Assembly (NCBI GenBank): GCA_001801885.1
Contig: MGYU01000075.1
Location: 1 to 52,668 of the forward strand
Source of the DNA: Gammaproteobacteria bacterium RIFCSPLOWO2_12_47_11
GTDB lineage: Bacteria > Pseudomonadota > Gammaproteobacteria > Eutrophobiales > Eutrophobiaceae
Length of the DNA: 52,668 bases
Direction of reading: 5' to 3'
The notes beneath the pieces are model-generated. The model ran no database searches and was not told where the DNA came from. It worked only from the letters and a program-made list of their open reading frames with translations. The position numbers were made by a program, and so were the translations under genes. Below, one piece after another: positions 5,226 to 52,606 of the stretch. The stretch's first letter is position 1, and every line of letters begins with the position of its first letter.

Positions 5226-5504
5226 AAGACTTCTATGTTATAAAACGCCCGCAGTTTAGTAGCTACCCCTGAAAATGTCACCCGTGATTTTTTTCAGAAA
5301 TAGAAATTTAGCATTCGCCCAGGCGAGCGTTATGTGCGATTGCAAAATGGCAGTATATCCCTATACTGCAAAACCTCTGAAAAGTTCAGAGTTCAATTAA
5401 CCCCACACGCGCACTGTAACTGTGTAATGGGTGCCCGGACAGAGTATCTGGACGGGTTATTACACGGGGTGTGCGGAGGCTTAACCCTACAGGAGAATAT
5501 AGTT
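5226..5504 (+). promoter_or_regulatory. divergent map/rpsB promoter region with candidate structured rpsB 5' leader
   Basis: A 279-nt gap lies upstream of rpsB. An imperfect hairpin spans 5422-5465 (GTGTAAT...ATTACAC enclosing CCCGGACAG/CTGGACGGG), followed by SD AGGAG at 5491. In gammaproteobacteria S2 autoregulates through a structured leader. Confidence 0.3.
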
Positions 5505-15850: not shown

Positions 15851-16864
15851 ATGACACTTACTCTTGGGGAAATCGCCAGACACATAAAAGCTGAGTTGTA
15901 CGGCGCCCCTGAATATGAGATACATGCAATCAATACCCTGCAAAAAGCATCTACAGGTGAAATCAGTTTTTTTTCCAACAGGCGTTATTTAACCTGGCTG
16001 AAATCAACCACTGCATCGGCCGTTATCCTCAGCAAGGAAGACCGGGAGCTTTGTCCAACAGCCACGCTTGTTGTAGATAATCCCTATCTTGCTTATGCCT
16101 TTACCGCCAGACTTTTGTATCCCGAGCCAGAGCACAAACCCGGGATCAGTTCATCCGCGCATATTGATCCTTCAGCCAAAATACATTCGACTGCCTTTAT
16201 AGGTCCACACGTCACCATCGGCACCGATACTATTATCACAGAAAATGTGTTCATAGGGGCAGGATCTGTTATCGGCAATAACGTGATTATCGGTACAAAC
16301 AGCAAACTGTACGCAAATGTTGTGATGTATGATGGTGTAAAAACAGGTGAGCGTGTCATATTACACTCCGGTGTAGTTATTGGTGCCGATGGTTTCGGGA
16401 TTGCAAATAACAAAGGGCGATGGGTCAAGATTCCCCAGATTGGAAGTGTAGTCATCGGCAATGATGTTGAGATAGGGGCCAATACAACGGTAGATCGTGG
16501 CGCCCTGGATAATACCATCATTGATGACGGGGTAAAGATAGATAATCAGGTACAGGTGGGACATAACGTACATATAGAAGAACACACGGCGATTGCCGGA
16601 TGTGTGGCCATTGCCGGTAGCACCCGAATTGGCAAACGCTGTATTATAGGCGGAGCCTGCGGGATCAGCGGACATATTGAAATTGCTGATGATGTTACAT
16701 TGATGGGGATGACCGGAGTGGCAAACTCAATCAAGGAGTCTGGTGTTTATGCCTCTGTCATCCCTGCGATGGATGTAAAGCTATGGAGAAAAAATGCTGT
16801 GAGCTTCAAACAATTGCATACATTTGCCACACGCATCAGAAAAATTGAAGATAACAACCAATAA
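15851..16864 (+). CDS. lpxD: UDP-3-O-acylglucosamine N-acyltransferase
   Basis: Left-handed beta-helix hexapeptide repeats throughout. N-terminal FFSNRRY motif and GFG..N..G.W.KIPQ.G.V.IG motif. Confidence 0.94.
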   Translation: MTLTLGEIARHIKAELYGAPEYEIHAINTLQKASTGEISFFSNRRYLTWLKSTTASAVILSKEDRELCPTATLVVDNPYLAYAFTARLLYPEPEHKPGISSSAHIDPSAKIHSTAFIGPHVTIGTDTIITENVFIGAGSVIGNNVIIGTNSKLYANVVMYDGVKTGERVILHSGVVIGADGFGIANNKGRWVKIPQIGSVVIGNDVEIGANTTVDRGALDNTIIDDGVKIDNQVQVGHNVHIEEHTAIAGCVAIAGSTRIGKRCIIGGACGISGHIEIADDVTLMGMTGVANSIKESGVYASVIPAMDVKLWRKNAVSFKQLHTFATRIRKIEDNNQ

Positions 16865-31420: not shown

Positions 31421-31458
31421 CAAACAACAAATAAATAAGGGGCCTTACGGCCCCTTAT
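31421..31458 (-). terminator. rho-independent terminator of pqqA
   Basis: A perfect 10-bp stem ATAAGGGGCC/GGCCCCTTAT (31435-31444 / 31449-31458) has a 4-nt loop (GTAA on the minus strand). It is followed on the minus strand by TTATTTGTTGTTTG. It lies 26 nt after the pqqA stop. Confidence 0.8.
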
Positions 31459-31483
31459 CGCTAGCTTTTAAAGCTTCAGTACA

Positions 31484-31558
31484 TTACTTGTTGTTGATGT
31501 ACATGGTCACTTCGAAGCCAAAACGAATGTCGTTATATTCTGGTGTAGTCCACTTCAT
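31484..31558 (-). CDS. pqqA: coenzyme PQQ precursor peptide PqqA (24 aa)
   Basis: The hand translation is MKWTTPEYNDIRFGFEVTMYINNK*. This is close to Pseudomonas-type PqqA (MWTKPA.TDLRIGFEVTMYF..R as I recall it), including the E-x-x-x-Y crosslink pair. SD GAGGAG lies 6 nt upstream. It is too short for the ORF track. Confidence 0.9.
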   Translation of the reverse strand: MKWTTPEYNDIRFGFEVTMYINNK

Positions 31559-31643
31559 GATAATCTCCTCATTCTGATTTAGATTGAAAATTTTTGTAGC
31601 CTAGGTTGCCTGTTAACGGGATCCATAAACTACCAATTTGTCG

Positions 31644-31660
31644 TTGCAGTATCTGTGCCA
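31644..31660 (-). promoter_or_regulatory. sigma-54 (-24/-12) promoter upstream of pqqA
   Basis: The minus strand reads TGGCACAGATACTGCAA, against the consensus TGGCAC-N5-TTGCW. The GG/GC spacing is exact and there is one mismatch. It lies about 85 nt upstream of the pqqA ATG. Confidence 0.6.
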
Positions 31661-31701
31661 GTCTGATAATCATTTCATCATGATTAATAATAATACTAAA
31701 T

Positions 31702-31714
31702 AATCAATCACTTA
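31702..31714. promoter_or_regulatory. IHF-like site (WATCAANNNNTTR) between putative enhancer and sigma-54 promoter
   Basis: AATCAATCACTTA lies in an AT-rich tract about 45 nt upstream of the -24 element. Confidence 0.3.
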
Positions 31715-31735
31715 TATATATTATTGCAATGCAGT

Positions 31736-31758
31736 AAACCATTCGGATTCGATGGTTT
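31736..31758. promoter_or_regulatory. inverted repeat AAACCAT-N9-ATGGTTT, candidate enhancer (UAS) for the adjacent sigma-54 activator
   Basis: Perfect 7-bp arms lie about 80-100 nt upstream of the -24/-12 element, in the divergent pqqA/histidine-kinase spacer. Confidence 0.3.
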
Positions 31759-31837
31759 TGAATATCGTATTGGTTAATGATACTCATAGGCTTGGTCTAT
31801 ATGAACCAACTGCCGCATCAGTTATACTCCTCACACT

Positions 31838-33310
31838 ATGTGGTTCAGGCGCCCGAAATCTCTCAGGAATCTGTTAGTTATCCATGAGATCGCCTTTGTC
31901 CTGCTGGTGGCCGTGACCGGATCACTGGGCGGCCTCTCTGCCTATTTCTGGCAGCAATACTCGGCGGAATCCGTACGTATAAATAACCTCATATTCAGTC
32001 TGGAGCAGATCCGTGGCAGCCTTTTCCGGCAGATCCAGGAGGCAATCAGGGCCAGACTGCTGGAGGATGCCGGGGCCCTGGAACTCTATGGTGAATACTC
32101 GCGCAGTATTGATCAACAATTCAATCATCTGAGACAGAATTCAATCTCTTCTGAAGAGGATGTGGCAATCCAGAACCTCCAGGCCTCATACCGTGAAATA
32201 CAAAAGGACATGAACAAGATATTCACTGACCCTTATATGATCAGCCGCACTGTGCGTATGAAGATACTTGATCCACGCTTTGCCCAGAGCATGGTGGGAA
32301 AATTTGAAGGGAAATATCTGGAGATGAAAGCCCTGTTAAATGAGGAACATGAAGAACTGGATCTGGTGCTTCAACGCTGGACCAGTTATGCACCTGTCAT
32401 TATTCCGATTCCATTGTTTCTGGCAATAATACTGGTCTTGTATGCGCGATATATTCTGAACCGTGAATTTATCCAGCCGATGTCGCGTGTCATGACCGGG
32501 GCGCAAATCATCAGTCGTGGGAATCTGGAAAACAAAATTCCTGCCAATGGGGTGGAAGAAGTTTCACAACTGGCCCAGACCATAAACACCATGGCCAGTG
32601 ATCTTGAGGCAAGCCGTTCGGCCCTGGTGGAAAGTGAGAAACAGGCCGCGCTGGGCGCCCTGGTTCCCGTCGTTGCTCACAATATACGTAATCCGCTCGC
32701 CAGCATCAGGGCAACAGCGCAAGTCCTGGATGATGTGGTGGACAAGAAAGAACTGCAGGAAAGCAAGCAGGCCATACTGGAAACTATCGACAGACTGGAG
32801 CGGTGGGTCAGTTCACTGGTGTCTTACCTGCACCCGTTAAAACCAAATTACAGACTGGTCTACGCCAGCAATATGATCGATGCAGCATTATCGCTACTCA
32901 AAATCAAACTCGATGAAAAGGAAGTGACGATTGAAAAAGCCGGTTGGGAAAATGATCTGCGCCTGAATGCGGACCCTAATCTGCTGGAGCAGGCACTTTA
33001 TGCCTTGCTGGCAAATGCAGTAGATGCCTCTCCACAACAATCGGTAATAACTATCAAACTGAAGAACAGGGATAACCATCTTGAAATACACATTCAGGAC
33101 ATGGGTGCGGGACTGCCATTTGATCCAAAACCGAATAATCTTGCACCCGGCCCAACTACAAAGCGTTTTGGCACAGGACTGGGTATTCCAATCGCCTATA
33201 AAATATGTCAACAACATGGCTGGAAACTTGAATTTGAAATAAATAAAGAAGAAGGCACAACTGCAATCATAACAGCGCCAATCAGGGTAGTTGAGGAAAC
33301 AAACGAATGA
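31838..33310 (+). CDS. sensor histidine kinase (2 TM, HAMP, HisKA, HATPase_c)
   Basis: The H-box is VPVVAHNIRNPLASI, the N-box is LLANAVDAS, and the G-boxes are DMGAGL and GTGLGIP. Two TM segments flank a periplasmic region of about 150 aa. Confidence 0.88.
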   Translation: MWFRRPKSLRNLLVIHEIAFVLLVAVTGSLGGLSAYFWQQYSAESVRINNLIFSLEQIRGSLFRQIQEAIRARLLEDAGALELYGEYSRSIDQQFNHLRQNSISSEEDVAIQNLQASYREIQKDMNKIFTDPYMISRTVRMKILDPRFAQSMVGKFEGKYLEMKALLNEEHEELDLVLQRWTSYAPVIIPIPLFLAIILVLYARYILNREFIQPMSRVMTGAQIISRGNLENKIPANGVEEVSQLAQTINTMASDLEASRSALVESEKQAALGALVPVVAHNIRNPLASIRATAQVLDDVVDKKELQESKQAILETIDRLERWVSSLVSYLHPLKPNYRLVYASNMIDAALSLLKIKLDEKEVTIEKAGWENDLRLNADPNLLEQALYALLANAVDASPQQSVITIKLKNRDNHLEIHIQDMGAGLPFDPKPNNLAPGPTTKRFGTGLGIPIAYKICQQHGWKLEFEINKEEGTTAIITAPIRVVEETNE

Positions 33311-34725
33311 AAGAGGTCATCAATACACAACTGACATCCATGACAGTACCTGTGCTGGAAAAGCAGATTTTGATTGTTGAAGATGAAACTGTTTTTGCAC
33401 GGGCGATAGAGAAAAGATTGTCACGTGCAGGTTATAAATGCCAGATTGCCAGCGATATTAAAACTGCGGTTGAAAAACTTGACACATTCCCGCCTGATCT
33501 GATCCTGCTGGACATGCGTTTACCGGATGGTTCAGGTCTTGATTTTCTGGCCGAACTCAGGGCTAAACAAAGCACCAGCATTGCTGTCATCGTCATGTCA
33601 GCCTACGGTGAACTTGAAGATGCCGTTTCTGCCATGAAACTCGGCGCTTCAGATTATCTGAAAAAGCCGGTGGACCTGGATGAGCTGTTACTTAATGTAG
33701 AAAAGGTTCTGGACAAGAATGAACTGTCCAGAAAACTGACTTATTCAACCAAACGTGAACAACATGCAGTTGAAGGCGTGGAGTTTCTGGGAGAATGTCA
33801 AGCCATAGTGGAAATACGAAAACAGGTGGAACAGATCAGCCGCTTAACGCGCACTACAGACGCCATTCCACCTACCGTAATGATTCTCGGTGATACAGGA
33901 ACCGGCAAGGATGTTGTCGCGCGGTTACTGCATGCCAAAAGCAGTCGTAACGATAAACCATTTGTACATGTTGATTGTGCCTCTTTGCCCAAGGATTTGA
34001 TTGAAGCGGAATTGTTTGGTCATGAGAAAGGTGCATATACCAATGCCTATGTGGCAAGGACCGGTTTAATAGAGGCCGCGGAAGACGGTACCTTGTTTCT
34101 GGATGAGATTGGAGAACTGCCTCTCGATCTGCAATCAAAATTACTGGCGGTACTGGAGCGCAGGACCTTGCGCAGGGTGGGAACTACCCAGGAAAAGCCG
34201 GTTGCAGCCTGGTTTATTGCGGCAACTAACCACAATATAGATCAATTGACTCAAAAAGGTGAATTTCGATCCGATCTTTATTACCGGTTGAATGTATTGA
34301 ATATAACCATGCCGCACTTATGCGAACGTGGCCAGGATATCATGATCCTTGCCGGTTATTTTGCTAAACAAACAGCCAGACGCTACGGATTGAAAACACC
34401 TGCTTTTACCAGGGACGCAGAACAGGCACTCATGAATTATTCCTGGCCAGGCAATGTCCGTGAGATGAGACATTTGCTTGAACGCGTGGTGTTACTCGCC
34501 GGAGGCGGTGAGCTGAACAGTGAGATGCTGGCGCTTGCCCCGAGATCCGCCGGGACCAAATCGGAGGCCATAGCAGATTTGGGAGATTTGACACTTGATT
34601 CAGCCGAATTGTTGTTGATAAAACAGGCGCTGGAACGAACCAATGGAAATGTATCCAGAGCCGCACGTGAACTGGGTACTACGCGGATGGCATTAAGATA
34701 TCGAATGAAGAAATATAATTTGTGA
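33307..34725 (+). CDS. sigma-54-dependent response regulator (NtrC family: REC + AAA+ + Fis-type HTH)
   Basis: REC elements are ILIVEDE and LILLDMRLPDGSG. Walker A is GDTGTGKD and Walker B is LFLDEIGE. The sigma-54 contact loop reads GAYTNA (canonical GAFTGA). The C-terminal HTH is NVSRAARELGTTRMALRYRMKK. Its start overlaps the kinase stop. Confidence 0.9.
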   Translation: MKEVINTQLTSMTVPVLEKQILIVEDETVFARAIEKRLSRAGYKCQIASDIKTAVEKLDTFPPDLILLDMRLPDGSGLDFLAELRAKQSTSIAVIVMSAYGELEDAVSAMKLGASDYLKKPVDLDELLLNVEKVLDKNELSRKLTYSTKREQHAVEGVEFLGECQAIVEIRKQVEQISRLTRTTDAIPPTVMILGDTGTGKDVVARLLHAKSSRNDKPFVHVDCASLPKDLIEAELFGHEKGAYTNAYVARTGLIEAAEDGTLFLDEIGELPLDLQSKLLAVLERRTLRRVGTTQEKPVAAWFIAATNHNIDQLTQKGEFRSDLYYRLNVLNITMPHLCERGQDIMILAGYFAKQTARRYGLKTPAFTRDAEQALMNYSWPGNVREMRHLLERVVLLAGGGELNSEMLALAPRSAGTKSEAIADLGDLTLDSAELLLIKQALERTNGNVSRAARELGTTRMALRYRMKKYNL

Positions 34726-37271: not shown

Positions 37272-37302
37272 CATCAAGGTTTCCATTTAATAAACCTTGA
37301 TG
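37272..37302. terminator. 11-bp perfect hairpin between convergent cytochrome b561 and TraB/GumN genes (possible bidirectional terminator)
   Basis: CATCAAGGTTT-(9 nt)-AAACCTTGATG. The right arm overlaps the last codons of the GumN-like ORF. The flanking T-tracts are weak. Confidence 0.3.
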
Positions 37303-38228
37303 ATTTCGTAGCCTTTATTTTCAAGAAGTTTCAGCAAGCCTTTTTCATCCGGCAGATGTGATGCGCCGACGGCGATAAATGCACCGCCATGTTGCAGATA
37401 AGGTTCCATCTTTTCCAGCATACGATGACTCCTGTCATAGAGTATGCGTTGCATAAACCTGTCAAAAATTGCTTCATCATAATGCGGTTGTTCGTTGAAA
37501 ATGACTGTACCTGCAAGGTCGCGGGCCAGATACATATCCACCAGATCGCGTGTCTTTCTGATTATGCCGGAATGATTACAAACTGTGTCATTGAGGATGA
37601 TGATCTGATCATCAACCGGAATCCCGTCAAGTATGCCGGCCAGTTCATCCATGGTTTCCAGTCCGTAGACAGTTTTGTTCGAGTCCAGGGCCTATTGCAT
37701 TAATACCTGTTCCTGGGTGGTTGCATTTACCGGGCGTGGCCTGCCAATCTGGGTAAAGGCAGCCCGGGGTTTGAGGCGCCGGACATTTTCTTCAGGAATG
37801 CCGTAATCAGTGATCTTCTCTACCAGTTTGTTATAGATTTCCTTATCCAGCATGGTTTCCAGATTGCTGTCATCTGTAAAGTAGATTGATTCAACAAATT
37901 GTTGATGCGCCTCCTGGTCCGGGACAACCTCTATCACCAGTGTACGGCTTTGCAATAATGCCAGTCTTACCGGCGGGGGAATGGCAGTGACCTTTCTGTC
38001 CTGGGAATGCATGGTGCCAAACAGATAGGAAACTCCTGCCTGCGGATACCGGATCTTCCATAACAAACCGTTACCATAAGGTATACTCCCACGTGCTTTT
38101 GTATTCAGGCCAGATTGGTTATGATCCTGCCGGTAGGGCTCACATATTCCGGGTAGAGATTCCCCGGCAGCGGCACCGGCTGGAAGAACACCAGCAGCCA
38201 AGAATAATAACAAGAATAAATTCAGCAT
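37287..38228 (-). pseudogene. TraB/GumN family protein interrupted by a single in-frame TAG (at 37692-37694)
   Basis: ORFs 37692-38228 and 37287-37652 are in the same frame. Translation across the stop reads ..TTQEQVLMQ*ALDSNKTVYGLETMDELAG.., which restores the family GLET motif. The N-terminal LLWKI...SYLFGTMH and the C-terminal VGASHLPDEKGLLKLLENKGYEI are typical of the family. Confidence 0.75.
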
Positions 38229-44195: not shown

Positions 44196-45452
44196 ATGAA
44201 TATATTGATAATTGACGATTCGAAGGATTTCCGGGCGCTGGTGAGATCATATCTTTCCAAACAACTCAAAGTGGCGCGGCTGGTTGACTACGAGGTAGAA
44301 AATCTGGGCAAGCCCGGTCCGGATTTCAAATGGTCAGACTATGATGTGCTGCTGCTGGATTACAATCTGGGCGGCGGTGAAAACGGGTTTACCTGGTTAA
44401 AGGAGTTTTCTTCAGCAACAGGATTCCCTCCAACCATTATTCTGACGGCAGAAGGTGATGAGTATATTGCAGTCAAGGCCATCAAACTGGGTGCCGCAGA
44501 CTATCTCAATAAAGTGGATATGTCTCCCAGGCGCCTGGTTGAAGCTATCATCGAGGCGACTGAATATACACCCCAGAAAAAAGCCGAACTGGAAAAAGAC
44601 AAAGTTCAGGCCGAAGGCCTGGTTCATGAGTTACATAATAAAAACCAGAAAGCATCCAGACAACCCGAAATCGGCTCTGCATATAAATTTGTCAGGGAGA
44701 TTGGCCAGGGCGCGATGTCCAAGGTTTATCTGGCCGAACGCGAGTCCGATCAATTATCTCTGGTACTCAAGATACTGGAGATAGACGCCTCAACCAGTGA
44801 AGTATCGGTCTGTCGATTCATGCAGGAAGCTGAACTGGTTTCAAAATTGTCCAGTCCGTTTGTTGTCAGGATTTATGATTATGGTCTGACAAATGAATAT
44901 TGTTTTATCGCCATGGAGTTTTTTTCCAGGGGTGATTTGAAGCAAAGGATGGAACTGAGATTATCTTCAGATCTTGCAATCAATTACATGACGCACATTG
45001 CCTACGGCCTGGATGCCATACACAGGATCGGAGTAGTACACAGGGACCTAAAACCGGCGAATATCATGTTCCGCGGTGATGACAGTCTGGCATTGGCGGA
45101 TTTTGGCATATCAAAAAAACTGGATTCCCCCTCTGAATTGACTACTCTCGGGCAGATACTTGGAACACCACATTATATAAGTCCTGAACAGGGCGAGGGC
45201 AGGGCCATCGATCCGCGCTCTGATATTTACAGTGCTGGCGTGCTGCTGTATGAGTTGCTGACACGGGAAAAACCTTACACGGCATCTACACCAGCCGCAT
45301 TGATCTACCAGCATGTGTATTCACCTGTTCCTGTATTGCCGGGGAAGTTGGCCGGATATCAGGAGATCATTAATACAACCATGGCCAAGCATCCGGCAGA
45401 ACGTTACCAGACGGCAGCGGAGCTGATCCGGGCACTGGAAGCAGTGGCATAA
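44196..45452 (+). CDS. response-regulator receiver domain fused to Hanks-type Ser/Thr protein kinase
   Basis: REC elements are ILIIDDS, VLLLDYNL, ILTAEG and KAIKLGAADYL. Kinase elements are the G-loop IGQGAMSKVY, the Lys in LVLKIL, the catalytic VHRDLKPANI, DFG, and GTPHYISPEQ. Confidence 0.88.
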   Translation: MNILIIDDSKDFRALVRSYLSKQLKVARLVDYEVENLGKPGPDFKWSDYDVLLLDYNLGGGENGFTWLKEFSSATGFPPTIILTAEGDEYIAVKAIKLGAADYLNKVDMSPRRLVEAIIEATEYTPQKKAELEKDKVQAEGLVHELHNKNQKASRQPEIGSAYKFVREIGQGAMSKVYLAERESDQLSLVLKILEIDASTSEVSVCRFMQEAELVSKLSSPFVVRIYDYGLTNEYCFIAMEFFSRGDLKQRMELRLSSDLAINYMTHIAYGLDAIHRIGVVHRDLKPANIMFRGDDSLALADFGISKKLDSPSELTTLGQILGTPHYISPEQGEGRAIDPRSDIYSAGVLLYELLTREKPYTASTPAALIYQHVYSPVPVLPGKLAGYQEIINTTMAKHPAERYQTAAELIRALEAVA

Positions 45453-50582: not shown

Positions 50583-51950
50583 ATGATGAGCCTGCGTTTT
50601 CGTCTTAATCTGTTTATAATTTTGCTGTTCGCATTGATATTTGTCAGCGGCAGTATTTATGTTATCCATAATGCACGCAAGGCAGTCAAGGACGAAGTCG
50701 GGGCAACCGCCTATTTGACTTTGCAACTGGTGAATATTGCACTGACTAATGTGGACAGCGGTGGACAGGCCGGGCAGCAGACCAGTGTACTGGAAAAAAT
50801 AGCCGCTCTTGAAAGTACCCGGCACCTCAATATCGAACTGTATCGTACCGATGATCCATTGCGCACCAAACCGGATCACTTATCTGCTAAGGAAATCCCT
50901 ATCACGGCCCAGGCACCATCATGGTTTATACAACTGGTGAAACCCGCCCCCATGGAGTTCCGGCATGTGGTTGATGAGTCCGGTATTCCCTATACGGAGA
51001 TCCTGATCAAGGCTGACCCGTCAGACGAGATCACAGAGGTATGGACTGAATCCAGGGGGGTTCTGGGACTGCTGGTAGTGTTTGTTGTACTGGCCAATGT
51101 ACTGGTCTATATCACACTGGGCCGTGGTCTGGCGCCACTGGAAACCATCCTGAAAGGGCTGGAAGGCATAGAACGCGGAGACTACAAGCTCCGGTTACCG
51201 GCATTCAATCTGCCGGAGCTGGCCAGGATATCGGAAAAATTCAACCACATGGCCGAGGTATTGAATCGCAGCAAAGAAGAGAACAGGTTTCTGATGCAAC
51301 GCTCTCTGGCCATACAGGAGAACGAAAGACGTAATCTCGCCTATGAACTGCATGATGAGCTTGGGCAGTCCATCACCGCCATCAAGGCAGTGGCAGTTTC
51401 AATTGAAAGACAACCGGACAAGGATGCTGCAGCAATTAATGAAAGTGCGGAAACAATAATCAGTGTTTCCAATCGCATGTACGATGTGGCACGCAATATG
51501 ATGCGCAGACTCAGACCGCCGTCTCTGGATGAACTTGGCCTGATCACGACTTTGCAGGACATGATAGATGACTGGAATGCCCGGCATCAGAAGATTTTCT
51601 GTAACTTCAGATTTGACGGGGATATGGGTGAATTGAATGAAGAAATCAACATCAGTTTATACCGGATAGTCCAGGAAGGGCTGACCAATATCGTTAAACA
51701 TGCGCAGGCAAATACCGTCAAGATATCCATGTCAGTCACCCAGGCAAAATCAGATGTAAAAAATTCACATCACAACCATGTTATATTGACCATAGAAGAT
51801 GATGGCTGTGGGTTTGATACAGGCGGTGTCCGTCCCGGACTGGGTTTGCTGGGCATGCGAGAACGGGCAGAGGCCCTGAATGGCACTTTAACCATGATCT
51901 CGAAACCTGGAGAAGGGTTAAAAATAAAAGTATTGATACCAATAAAATAA
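50583..51950 (+). CDS. sensor histidine kinase (NarX/UhpB-like: 2 TM, HAMP, HisKA_3, HATPase_c)
   Basis: H-box LAYELHDELGQSITAIK, N-box QEGLTNIVKHA, G-box DDGCGF..GLGLLGMRERA. Confidence 0.88.
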   Translation: MMSLRFRLNLFIILLFALIFVSGSIYVIHNARKAVKDEVGATAYLTLQLVNIALTNVDSGGQAGQQTSVLEKIAALESTRHLNIELYRTDDPLRTKPDHLSAKEIPITAQAPSWFIQLVKPAPMEFRHVVDESGIPYTEILIKADPSDEITEVWTESRGVLGLLVVFVVLANVLVYITLGRGLAPLETILKGLEGIERGDYKLRLPAFNLPELARISEKFNHMAEVLNRSKEENRFLMQRSLAIQENERRNLAYELHDELGQSITAIKAVAVSIERQPDKDAAAINESAETIISVSNRMYDVARNMMRRLRPPSLDELGLITTLQDMIDDWNARHQKIFCNFRFDGDMGELNEEINISLYRIVQEGLTNIVKHAQANTVKISMSVTQAKSDVKNSHHNHVILTIEDDGCGFDTGGVRPGLGLLGMRERAEALNGTLTMISKPGEGLKIKVLIPIK

Positions 51951-52606
51951 TGACGAAGATGCATGAGAGAAAAAAGATCAGGGTGTTACTGGCAGATGAT
52001 CATGCCGTAGTCAGGGCCGGCTACCAGATGTTGCTGAAAAACTCTGGTGATATTGAAGTTATCGGTGAGGCTGATTCCGGTGAGCGTGCCTGCAAGGCGT
52101 TTGCAGAACTGCAACCGGATGTCGTCGTGATGGACCTGTCCATGCCGGGCATTGGAGGTCTGGAGGCCATACGGCGCATTACTGCGCGTGATGCCAATGC
52201 GAGAATCCTGGTATTCAGCATGCATGATGATACCGTGTTTGTTGAACATGCTTTGCAGGCCGGTGCCCGGGGTTATCTCTGCAAGAGCAGCGCCCCTGAA
52301 GTTCTGGTTGAAGCCATCATTGAACTGGCCTCAGGTAAATCACACATTGATTCGGACATGGCCCAGAAACTTGCCCTGCAGAAGGCGCGCGGAAAAGATT
52401 CGCCCTTTTCCAATCTCTCCACACGTGAATTCGAGATCTTCTGTTTGCTGGCAGAGGGATTAAACACCAGTGAAATCGCAAAGCGGTTGTCGCTGAGTTA
52501 TAAAACGGTTGCCAATTACAGCACCCAGATCAAAAGCAAGCTGAATGTGACCACCGTCGCCGAACTGGCCCGTCTGGCGATCAGGAACAACATAATCAAC
52601 GCGTGA
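51950..52606 (+). CDS. NarL/FixJ (LuxR-type HTH) response regulator
   Basis: REC elements are VLLADDH, VVVMDLSMPG and a conserved Lys (LCKSS). The C-terminal HTH is LSTREFEIFCLLAEGLNTSEIAKRLSLSYKTVANY. Confidence 0.9.
   Translation: MTKMHERKKIRVLLADDHAVVRAGYQMLLKNSGDIEVIGEADSGERACKAFAELQPDVVVMDLSMPGIGGLEAIRRITARDANARILVFSMHDDTVFVEHALQAGARGYLCKSSAPEVLVEAIIELASGKSHIDSDMAQKLALQKARGKDSPFSNLSTREFEIFCLLAEGLNTSEIAKRLSLSYKTVANYSTQIKSKLNVTTVAELARLAIRNNIINA

Follow-up and report, generated by a model that had tools for sequence, protein, structure and literature searches.

How is the supply of the pyrroloquinoline quinone (PQQ) precursor controlled when the gene for the precursor peptide, pqqA, stands apart from the rest of the pathway? 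This question is raised by a 52,668-nt contig of Gammaproteobacteria bacterium RIFCSPLOWO2_12_47_11 (MGYU01000075.1; its whole length is called the window here), in which a 24-codon pqqA lies divergent from the genes of a sensor histidine kinase and an NtrC-class response regulator. Methanol, ethanol and glucose dehydrogenases use PQQ as their cofactor, and PQQ limits methylotrophy. Beyond a small number of model strains, little is understood of how its supply is controlled. A first-pass annotation, made from the sequence alone, had proposed that this two-component system gates the supply of the PQQ precursor through sigma-54. Taking all the evidence together, we consider it likely that pqqA is a functional stand-alone gene with a sigma-54/enhancer promoter, that the divergent NtrC-class system is its likeliest activator and that the system works as a switch for the whole pathway.

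The hallmark of PqqA is a peptide of 20-30 residues with a Glu-X3-Tyr pair, which is cross-linked into PQQ. The minus-strand open reading frame (ORF) in question encodes 24 residues and carries the PQQ-forming pair as Glu16-V-T-M-Tyr20. It scored above the cut-off with both the Pfam PqqA profile (PF08042, 44.1 bits, cut-off 21.1) and the NCBIfam equivalog (TIGR02107, 47.0 bits, cut-off 20), which confirms its first-pass identification as a PqqA precursor. Selection on the gene was assessed in 15 loci that were picked via the kinase and not via pqqA. Pairwise codon differences among them were 725 synonymous against 188 nonsynonymous, and in codons 10-24 they were 445 against 28. The amino acids of the Glu-X3-Tyr codons are invariant in the 15 loci and the third positions vary. 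The column conservation of the coding sequence reaches 0.90 in the aligned kinase-anchored intergenic regions. These counts argue for a coding gene under selection and not a relic, and by its codons this is a genuine PqqA under purifying selection. The gene had been reported as unannotated, and it is also left uncalled in the public contigs that hold the window sequence, among them metagenome contigs from groundwater, soil and sediment. A highly conserved gene of 24 codons is thus systematically missed by gene callers, so that PQQ synthesis may be judged incomplete, in error, when pathways are reconstructed from metagenome-assembled genomes (MAGs).

Upstream of pqqA the first-pass annotation had pointed to TGGCAC-N5-CTGCA with exact -24/-12 spacing. 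The element is present, with 87 nt between its GC and the pqqA ATG, and the GG and GC doublets of TGGCACAGATACTGCA are exactly 10 bp apart, as in TGGCAC-N5-TTGCW. From this position, transcription would start near 31634-31636. A lone match of this kind is not significant and its weight comes only from conservation: since 1.02 matches are expected by chance in the 52.7-kb window, the promoter claim rests on comparison between loci. A genome scan with the kinase gave 12 orthologue loci, 11 of them with upstream sequence, from MAGs of uncultured Gammaproteobacteria (58-79% identity). Conservation in the aligned intergenic regions is limited to discrete blocks, separated by spacers at 0.45-0.55. 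The -24/-12 block has a conservation of 0.79, and all but one of the 11 loci retain GG-N10-GC. The IHF-like site noted earlier also proved to be a conserved block, which reads TAAnnnnTTGATT in this alignment. The strongest block, at about 154 bp upstream of the -12, is a 16-bp palindrome in which 11 columns do not vary. It is the top match of the position weight matrix in the window (22.1 bits), and a distance of 29 bp separates it from the kinase ATG, both in the window and in every kinase-adjacent locus compared. The second-best match (15995-16010, 18.5 bits) is inside a coding region, without a -24/-12 partner, and was set aside as a chance match. A degenerate second site lies 22 bp from the main palindrome, centre to centre, and tandem pairs at 22-23 bp recur in many loci. 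The 7-bp inverted repeat AAACCAT-N9-ATGGTTT (31736-31758), which had been noted as a further upstream element, does exist, but it falls in an unconserved spacer (mean column 0.50) and is not the enhancer. The interval 31700-31760, suggested earlier for footprinting of the activator, likewise misses the conserved tandem TGG-N10-CCA pair, which sits past it at 31771-31808.

An independent comparison was anchored on the peptide. A metagenome scan with back-translated FGFEVTMYINNK gave at least 120 loci, of which 109 non-identical upstream regions were used; the counts that follow hold among the matches listed. The -24/-12 criterion was TGGCAY-N7-GC within 140 nt of the ATG. The element was found in 83 of the 109 loci (76%) against a background of 0.031 per kb, an enrichment of about 170-fold, and it keeps a fixed position while the flanks drift. 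Of these 83 loci, 81 also carry a TGG-N10-CCA palindrome, or two of them, at 100-170 bp upstream of the -12 (background 0.28 per kb). The family consensus is TGGCACggnatCTGC for the -24/-12 element and TGGTTaaTattAACCA for the palindrome. A strict IHF consensus occurs in 17 of the 83 promoters, where 1.2 would be expected, centred 50-70 bp from the -12. The geometry of palindrome, IHF box and -24/-12 element strongly supports a classical sigma-54 enhancer-dependent promoter.

The same signature was found at pqqBCDE. Palindrome and -24/-12 element are present at all six pqqA-pqqB loci. One pqqA-pqqB operon (L116) has the identical palindrome 16-mer of the window upstream. In another locus (L145) a second, diverged pqqA (MIWQTPEFSDVRFGFEVTMYINHC) precedes pqqB; the ATG of this pqqA follows TGGCATAGTTTTCGC at a distance of 43 nt, and TGGTTTATTTCAACCA stands farther upstream. 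L147 lacks a pqqA before pqqB, yet pqqB is preceded by TGGCACGATTCTGGC (36 nt) and TGGTTGATATAAACCA. The upstream regions of the methanol dehydrogenase gene xoxF in three loci (L017, L023 and L024) contain neither the palindrome nor the -24/-12 element, and a regulator shared with xoxF was ruled out on this basis. Presence at pqqB and absence at xoxF suggest that the signature marks PQQ biosynthesis genes specifically. As it precedes pqq(A)BCDE, the whole PQQ pathway appears to be co-regulated, and not the precursor alone. The promoter architecture behind the proposed gating is thus conserved, while the restriction to the precursor does not hold, because pqq(A)BCDE share the signature. Two other candidates for pathway genes beside pqqA were rejected: the extra genes downstream of pqqA in L013 and L017, considered as pqqB/C, are an ABC transporter and an unknown protein, and a cluster (c14) downstream of pqqA in L074, considered as PqqB, had no Pfam match.

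The divergent neighbours are a histidine kinase and an NtrC-family activator, as first described: Pfam detected HAMP, HisKA and HATPase domains in the former, and REC (PF00072), Sigma54_activat (PF00158, 206 bits) and HTH_8 (PF02954) in the latter. Aquifex NtrC4 and NtrC1 are the solved structures that the regulator resembles most. No NCBIfam equivalog (NtrC, AtoC, ZraR, GlrR, LuxO and others) reached its cut-off for the regulator, the best being AtoC with 358 vs 714 bits, and none did for the kinase. The sigma-54 contact loop of the regulator (residues ~242-247) is GAYTNA and not the canonical GAFTGA. In 31 of 33 regulator orthologues the loop is GAFTNA (26), GAFTSA (3), GAFTDA (1) or GAFTHA (1), and it is never GAFTGA. 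The Phe/Tyr-Thr is retained and the fifth-position Gly replaced, a deviation that is itself conserved. In a regulator family linked to a conserved sigma-54 promoter, the GAFTNA loop offers a natural test of what the contact motif tolerates. The periplasmic domain of the kinase, about 150 residues (~35-183) between two transmembrane helices, is strongly conserved and has no Pfam match. Its structural model (pLDDT 81) is a four-helix bundle that weakly resembles the Tar/Tsr/PcaY/NarQ sensor domains.

In the kinase-anchored comparison, 10 of the 11 orthologue loci with upstream sequence have pqqA divergent from the kinase, as do four further kinase-orthologue loci, with a locus GC content from 36 to at least 59%. 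The more distant kinase loci include three, with a GC content of 36-39%, in which a convergent cytochrome b561 gene follows the divergent pqqA. Because this synteny is kept across a locus GC content of 36-63%, the adjacent two-component system is quite probably the activator of pqqA. The exception among the 11 loci, L016 (JARRRO010000097.1, 5000-5600), retains the kinase, the palindrome GTGGTTCATATAGACCAG and the -24/-12 element CTGGCACGAAATTCGCC, with no PqqA-like ORF after them; past the -24/-12 element, the sequence leads into a cytochrome b561-like gene in convergent orientation. A loss of pqqA or an assembly problem could explain this. An alternative is that promoter and palindrome are real but served by an enhancer-binding protein encoded elsewhere, so that the adjacent pair controls other things and its adjacency is a lineage-specific accident. 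Among the 120 loci listed, 30 adjoin orthologues of the kinase and regulator, 5 adjoin pqqB(CDE) and 85 adjoin neither. These 85 have the same promoter and palindrome and lie among housekeeping neighbours, with purEK on one side and dsbA/cytochrome c on the other or in the gap between pyrC and pilT, while some adjoin a MoxY-type kinase and a LuxR regulator. The promoter thus does not need an adjacent pair, and a different protein could be its activator; the non-canonical loop of the regulator and the locus without pqqA also favour this view. However, an accident fits poorly with adjacency in the 30 listed loci, the 10 MAG loci and the four further loci over so wide a GC range, or with a palindrome 29 bp from the kinase ATG in every adjacent locus, and no other sigma-54 activator was seen near any pqq locus. 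We regard an activator encoded elsewhere as rather unlikely.

The gene also seems to form a transcription unit of its own, as the first-pass annotation had suggested from a hairpin behind it. The terminator scan gave a stem of 11 pairs, 6 of them G-C, with a T-tract after it, and RNAalifold recovered 11 pairs over 11 loci, 4 of them with compensatory double changes. Its column conservation is 0.75, against 0.45-0.55 in the spacers. By sequence and covariation this is a full Rho-independent terminator with a G+C-rich stem and a T-tract. In some relatives the gene after pqqA is convergent. The Rfam scan gave no match at the pqqA locus. No RNA runs with the exact window sequence were found, only runs with relatives of about 97% identity. 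Two metatranscriptomes, from sludge and a bioreactor, contain isolated contigs of 242 and 231 nt from such a relative, which cover the leader, pqqA and the terminator, while neither flanking spacer has any coverage. Their 5' ends lie a few nt beyond the -12 GC and precede the predicted start by about 5-10 nt; at the 3' end they extend 20-25 nt beyond the T-tract. These contigs fit a short monocistronic pqqA RNA, but we weighted them lightly because they are assembled and there is DNA carry-over in sister libraries. A second alternative is that TGGCAC-N5-CTGCA is a chance match, that pqqA is transcribed from a sigma-70 promoter and that the palindrome is a conventional repressor or activator operator, or serves the kinase operon only. 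The one match per window expected by chance, weak sigma-70-like hexamers in the AT-rich spacer and the slightly early start of the RNA contigs agree with it. It is at odds with a GG-N10-GC with TGGCA(C/T) that is fixed in three quarters of the diverged loci listed, far above background, and with palindromes and IHF box at the distances of sigma-54 enhancers, and we consider it very improbable.

A functional pqqA requires attention to the rest of the pathway. Neither PqqB/C/D/E nor XoxF was found in the window by tblastn with the proteins of relatives (E<=1e-3), Pfam or the gene tables, in agreement with the first-pass statement that pqqBCDE is absent from it, and there are no pqq genes in the 4.5 kb beyond its right end. 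With a PqqB probe from L045, whose PqqA differs from that of the window by one residue, homologues were found on OZ242192.1, the 2,565,083-bp chromosome of L014, and on contigs of 371,092, 2,125,472 and 1,172,272 bp, all four equal in bp to kinase-bearing contigs. The gene order is pqqB-pqqC-pqqD-pqqE in the two relatives' loci that were fetched. In one 262-kb contig pqqBCDE lies about 33 kb from a kinase orthologue (77% identity), beside methanopterin/methanofuran genes, and on the complete chromosome OZ242192.1 it lies about 870 kb from the kinase orthologue. In one locus (L017), a PQQ dehydrogenase of the methanol/ethanol family (TIGR03075, 633 bits vs 480) is encoded a single gene away from pqqA. 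Homologues of this dehydrogenase occur on contigs of 555,846 and 1,442,423 bp, again equal in bp to kinase-bearing contigs, where XoxF sits with a cupredoxin, a xoxJ-like binding protein, NAD-formate dehydrogenase and fhc (tetrahydromethanopterin) genes. By this gene content, pqqBCDE and XoxF on the kinase-bearing contigs of relatives, the lineage appears to make and use PQQ. The relatives of the window organism, an uncultured group, live by XoxF-type, PQQ-dependent methanol oxidation. That pqqA is a relic or has a non-PQQ role in a genome without pqqBCDE, the case that the first-pass annotation had itself named as fatal, is hardly credible: it would fit the missing pqqBCDE in and just beyond the window and its detection in relatives and not in this exact genome, but it is contradicted by the strong purifying selection, by pqqBCDE elsewhere in the genomes of four relatives, on the same contig or chromosome (contigs equated by bp, gene order seen in two), and by XoxF on kinase-bearing contigs.

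Several observations weigh against a whole-pathway switch worked by the adjacent pair. In 85 of the 120 listed loci the same promoter architecture stands without an adjacent kinase and regulator, and L016 retains palindrome and -24/-12 element without pqqA. The contact loop of the regulator is GAYTNA, or GAFT(N/S/D/H)A in its orthologues, and not GAFTGA. The signature is missing upstream of xoxF. The evidence for pqqBCDE comes from relatives and not from the genome of the window. Finally, the ends of the RNA contigs are off the prediction at both sides, and the contigs themselves are assemblies with DNA carry-over in the sister libraries.

With these points considered, the following mechanism is proposed. 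A monocistronic pqqA RNA of about 200-240 nt would run from the sigma-54 promoter to the terminator. The promoter would stay off until an enhancer-binding ATPase, bound to the tandem TGG-N10-CCA sites, contacts it by looping, helped by an IHF-type bend at the IHF-like box. The likeliest activator would be the divergent NtrC-class regulator. The adjacent kinase would phosphorylate it, and the four-helix bundle of this kinase in the periplasm may sense a small molecule. We infer both the sigma-54 dependence of the pqqA promoter and the identity of the protein that binds the palindrome from the sequences compared. The pair probably autoregulates, as suggested by the palindrome that abuts the kinase start, 29 bp from its ATG and beside the GTTATACT box; this box is possibly the -10 of the kinase/regulator promoter, with the palindrome overlapping its -35 region. 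The system would switch the whole PQQ pathway, and the orphan pqqA would add extra substrate peptide. We see even chances for and against the most specific form of this proposal, in which a dedicated sigma-54 two-component system undescribed before (four-helix-bundle kinase and NtrC-class regulator with a GAFTNA loop) recognizes TGGTT-N6-AACCA and drives orphan pqqA and pqq(A)BCDE as a whole regulon in widespread uncultured XoxF-type Gammaproteobacteria of groundwater, soil, sediment and ocean. If this is true, an external signal, and not the regulators of methanol dehydrogenase, sets the cofactor supply. Three elements, the 16-bp palindrome, the IHF box and the -24/-12 promoter, make up a putative regulatory code, for which the analysis also offers a candidate sensor/regulator pair. 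Many uncultured methanol oxidizers that are abundant in the environment carry this code at pqqA and pqqBCDE. The features of the locus are listed in Table 1.

Table 1. Features of the pqqA locus and its divergent two-component system in the window
Feature	Position	Strand	Evidence or remarks
pqqA coding sequence, 24 codons + stop, MKWTTPEYNDIRFGFEVTMYINNK	31484..31558	-	translation, Pfam/NCBIfam profiles, conservation
Shine-Dalgarno GAGGAG, 6 nt before pqqA ATG	31565..31570	-	GAGGA-like block kept in alignment
Putative 5' untranslated leader, ~75 nt, stem-loop at its start	31571..31636	-	individual folds; weak evidence
Sigma-54-type -24/-12 element TGGCAC-AGATA-CTGCA, TGGCACAGATACTGCA	31645..31660	-	GG 31658-31659, GC 31646-31647
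IHF-like box TAAGTGATTGATT (YAANNNNTTGATW)	31702..31714	-	~60 nt upstream of -12; mean conservation 0.81
Second, degenerate putative enhancer site TGAGTATCATTAACCA (pattern TGG-N10-CCA)	31771..31786	-	conservation 0.74
Main putative enhancer palindrome TGGTTCATATAGACCA	31793..31808	-	family consensus TGGTTaaTattAACCA; conservation 0.95
Conserved GTTATACT box before kinase ATG	31821..31828	+	within conserved block AGTATAAC
Intrinsic terminator: stem GATAAGGGGCC/GGCCCCTTATT, loop GTAA, T-rich tail	31423..31459	-	terminator scan, RNAalifold
Sensor histidine kinase	31838..33310	+	first transmembrane helix, ~150-aa periplasmic four-helix bundle, second transmembrane helix, HAMP, HisKA (His281), HATPase
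NtrC-class response regulator	33307..34725	+	REC, AAA+ sigma-54 interaction (Walker A/B, ELFGHE), Fis-type HTH

The leader of pqqA is not conserved in sequence, yet hairpins recur at the equivalent place in relatives (individual folds, z -0.1 to -3.6). A shared structure was rejected, as RNAalifold gave no consensus and the individual hairpins have no common sequence. Within a few nt after the predicted start, the leaders of the window and of L007-L017 mostly fold into one stable hairpin or two, for example GUAC..GUAC and then CCNGG..CCNGG, with sequences that differ between loci. They may be 5' stabilizers of a short mRNA. On the other side of the intergenic region, the GTTATACT box ends 9 nt before the kinase ATG with no Shine-Dalgarno between, and the kinase mRNA may be nearly leaderless or its true start codon may lie elsewhere. 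A different pqqA (..SWETPAFADV..) was found as a 139-nt contig in RNA runs retrieved with window 31491-31525 and L080 2936-2972 (X24-X27). Its depth was 32 vs 5-12 for other contigs in X24 and 183 vs 15-21 in X25, and it was not raised above the other contigs in X26. This agrees in part with pqqA mRNAs being short and very abundant.

Variation was also seen in pqqA itself. Tandem duplicates (e.g. MNWQTPEYNDIRFGFEVTMYINNK twice), about 125 nt apart, are present in L029, L043, L057 and L088, in the purEK context and with one palindrome and -24/-12 promoter for both copies. The PqqA type of the window also occurs on 21 viral contigs (IMG/VR, L152-L172). In 15 of them the N-terminal half is variant (MKWE[TI]PSYED.., MWDKP[NS]YE.., MNWEKPTFED..), and the -24/-12 element and palindrome are lacking. 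Such variants in metagenome loci (L052, L087 and L048) adjoin capsid-like and SU10 adaptor genes, and they may be phage-borne auxiliary pqqA genes.

Other features of the window are more distant from pqqA. A second two-component system (50583-52606, plus strand) consists of a MoxY-type kinase of 455 amino acids (LapD_MoxY_N, HisKA_3 and HATPase) and a LuxR-type regulator of 218 amino acids (REC and GerE). Pairs of this type control methanol dehydrogenase genes in methylotrophs, and such a pair directly adjoins pqqA in metagenome loci L049, L061 and L071. A TraB/PrgY/GumN-family gene (37287-38228, minus strand) is present as two ORFs of 178 amino acids (profile 1-110) and 121 amino acids (profile 149-261), and its relatives are single ORFs of 317-347 amino acids (L007 and L022). 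As contigs of several samples share the split, the disruption is probably real. At 44196-45452 (plus strand), a protein of 418 amino acids joins a response-regulator receiver, at its N-terminus, to a Ser/Thr protein kinase domain, an unusual combination; its gene adjoins a TPR protein and a TonB-ExbB-ExbD cluster. The only Rfam match in the window is a t44 RNA (RF00127, 52.7 bits, 5386-5485, plus strand), at the start of an ORF called from 5334 that heads a gene row whose sizes suggest rpsB-tsf-pyrH-frr.

Orphan pqqA genes and NtrC-class systems both have known counterparts. In Methylophilaceae, 3-12 pqqA copies occur with one pqqBCDE set (PMC4109929). As in that family, pqqA is detached here from pqqBCDE in a PQQ-dependent methanol oxidizer, a second pqqA is found beside pqqB in the same genome (L145), and some loci have tandem duplicates. 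Unlike the Methylophilaceae copies, the genes described here belong to Gammaproteobacteria known only from metagenomes, the orphan pqqA has a conserved sigma-54 and enhancer promoter, and one clade has a dedicated two-component system beside it. No regulation of such kind for the Methylophilaceae copies was described in the literature searched.

Among NtrB/NtrC-class systems, CbrAB acts on crcZ with RpoN and IHF (PMC3480352). Both systems combine a membrane kinase with a REC-AAA+-HTH regulator, both have tandem palindromes more than 100 bp upstream of the -24/-12 element with an IHF box between, and in both the target is short, abundant and monocistronic. In contrast to the named NtrC-class systems, the pair described here has no equivalog at cut-off, a GAFTNA/GAYTNA loop and a four-helix-bundle sensor without family assignment, and its likely target, unlike those of CbrAB-type systems, is a cofactor precursor peptide. 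TGGTT-N6-AACCA is not known to be a site of any characterized NtrC-class member.

MxaY/MxaB-type systems are among the known regulators of pqq genes. Others are the extracytoplasmic function (ECF) sigma factor RpoE6, which regulates pqq in Azospirillum (PMC12826043), and CbrAB/Crc, which affects pqq genes indirectly in P. aeruginosa (PMC3480352). In Methylobacterium, pqqA expression responds to methanol and lanthanides and is regulated separately from pqqBCDE (PMC5784242). The arrangement proposed here shares with known pqq regulation that pqqA is controlled separately from, and more strongly than, pqqBCDE, and that the control is tied to alcohol oxidation, but the RpoE6, CbrAB/Crc, Methylobacterium and MxaY/MxaB cases act without a sigma-54 promoter at pqqA. 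Literature on pqqA with sigma-54, rpoN or an enhancer-binding protein gave no sigma-54 promoter at pqqA, in a coverage that is incomplete, so that this is an absence of evidence.

In the classical pqqABCDE operons of Methylobacterium and Klebsiella, a small pqqA RNA ends at a hairpin and the precursor exceeds the enzymes. A small pqqA RNA ending at a stem-loop is expected here too, but the stem-loop is a full intrinsic terminator with no pqq gene after it, and in the relatives the pqqB-linked pqqA is followed by a gap of 150-170 nt before pqqB. The parts, an orphan pqqA and an NtrC-class system, are known, and it is their regulatory arrangement that is new.

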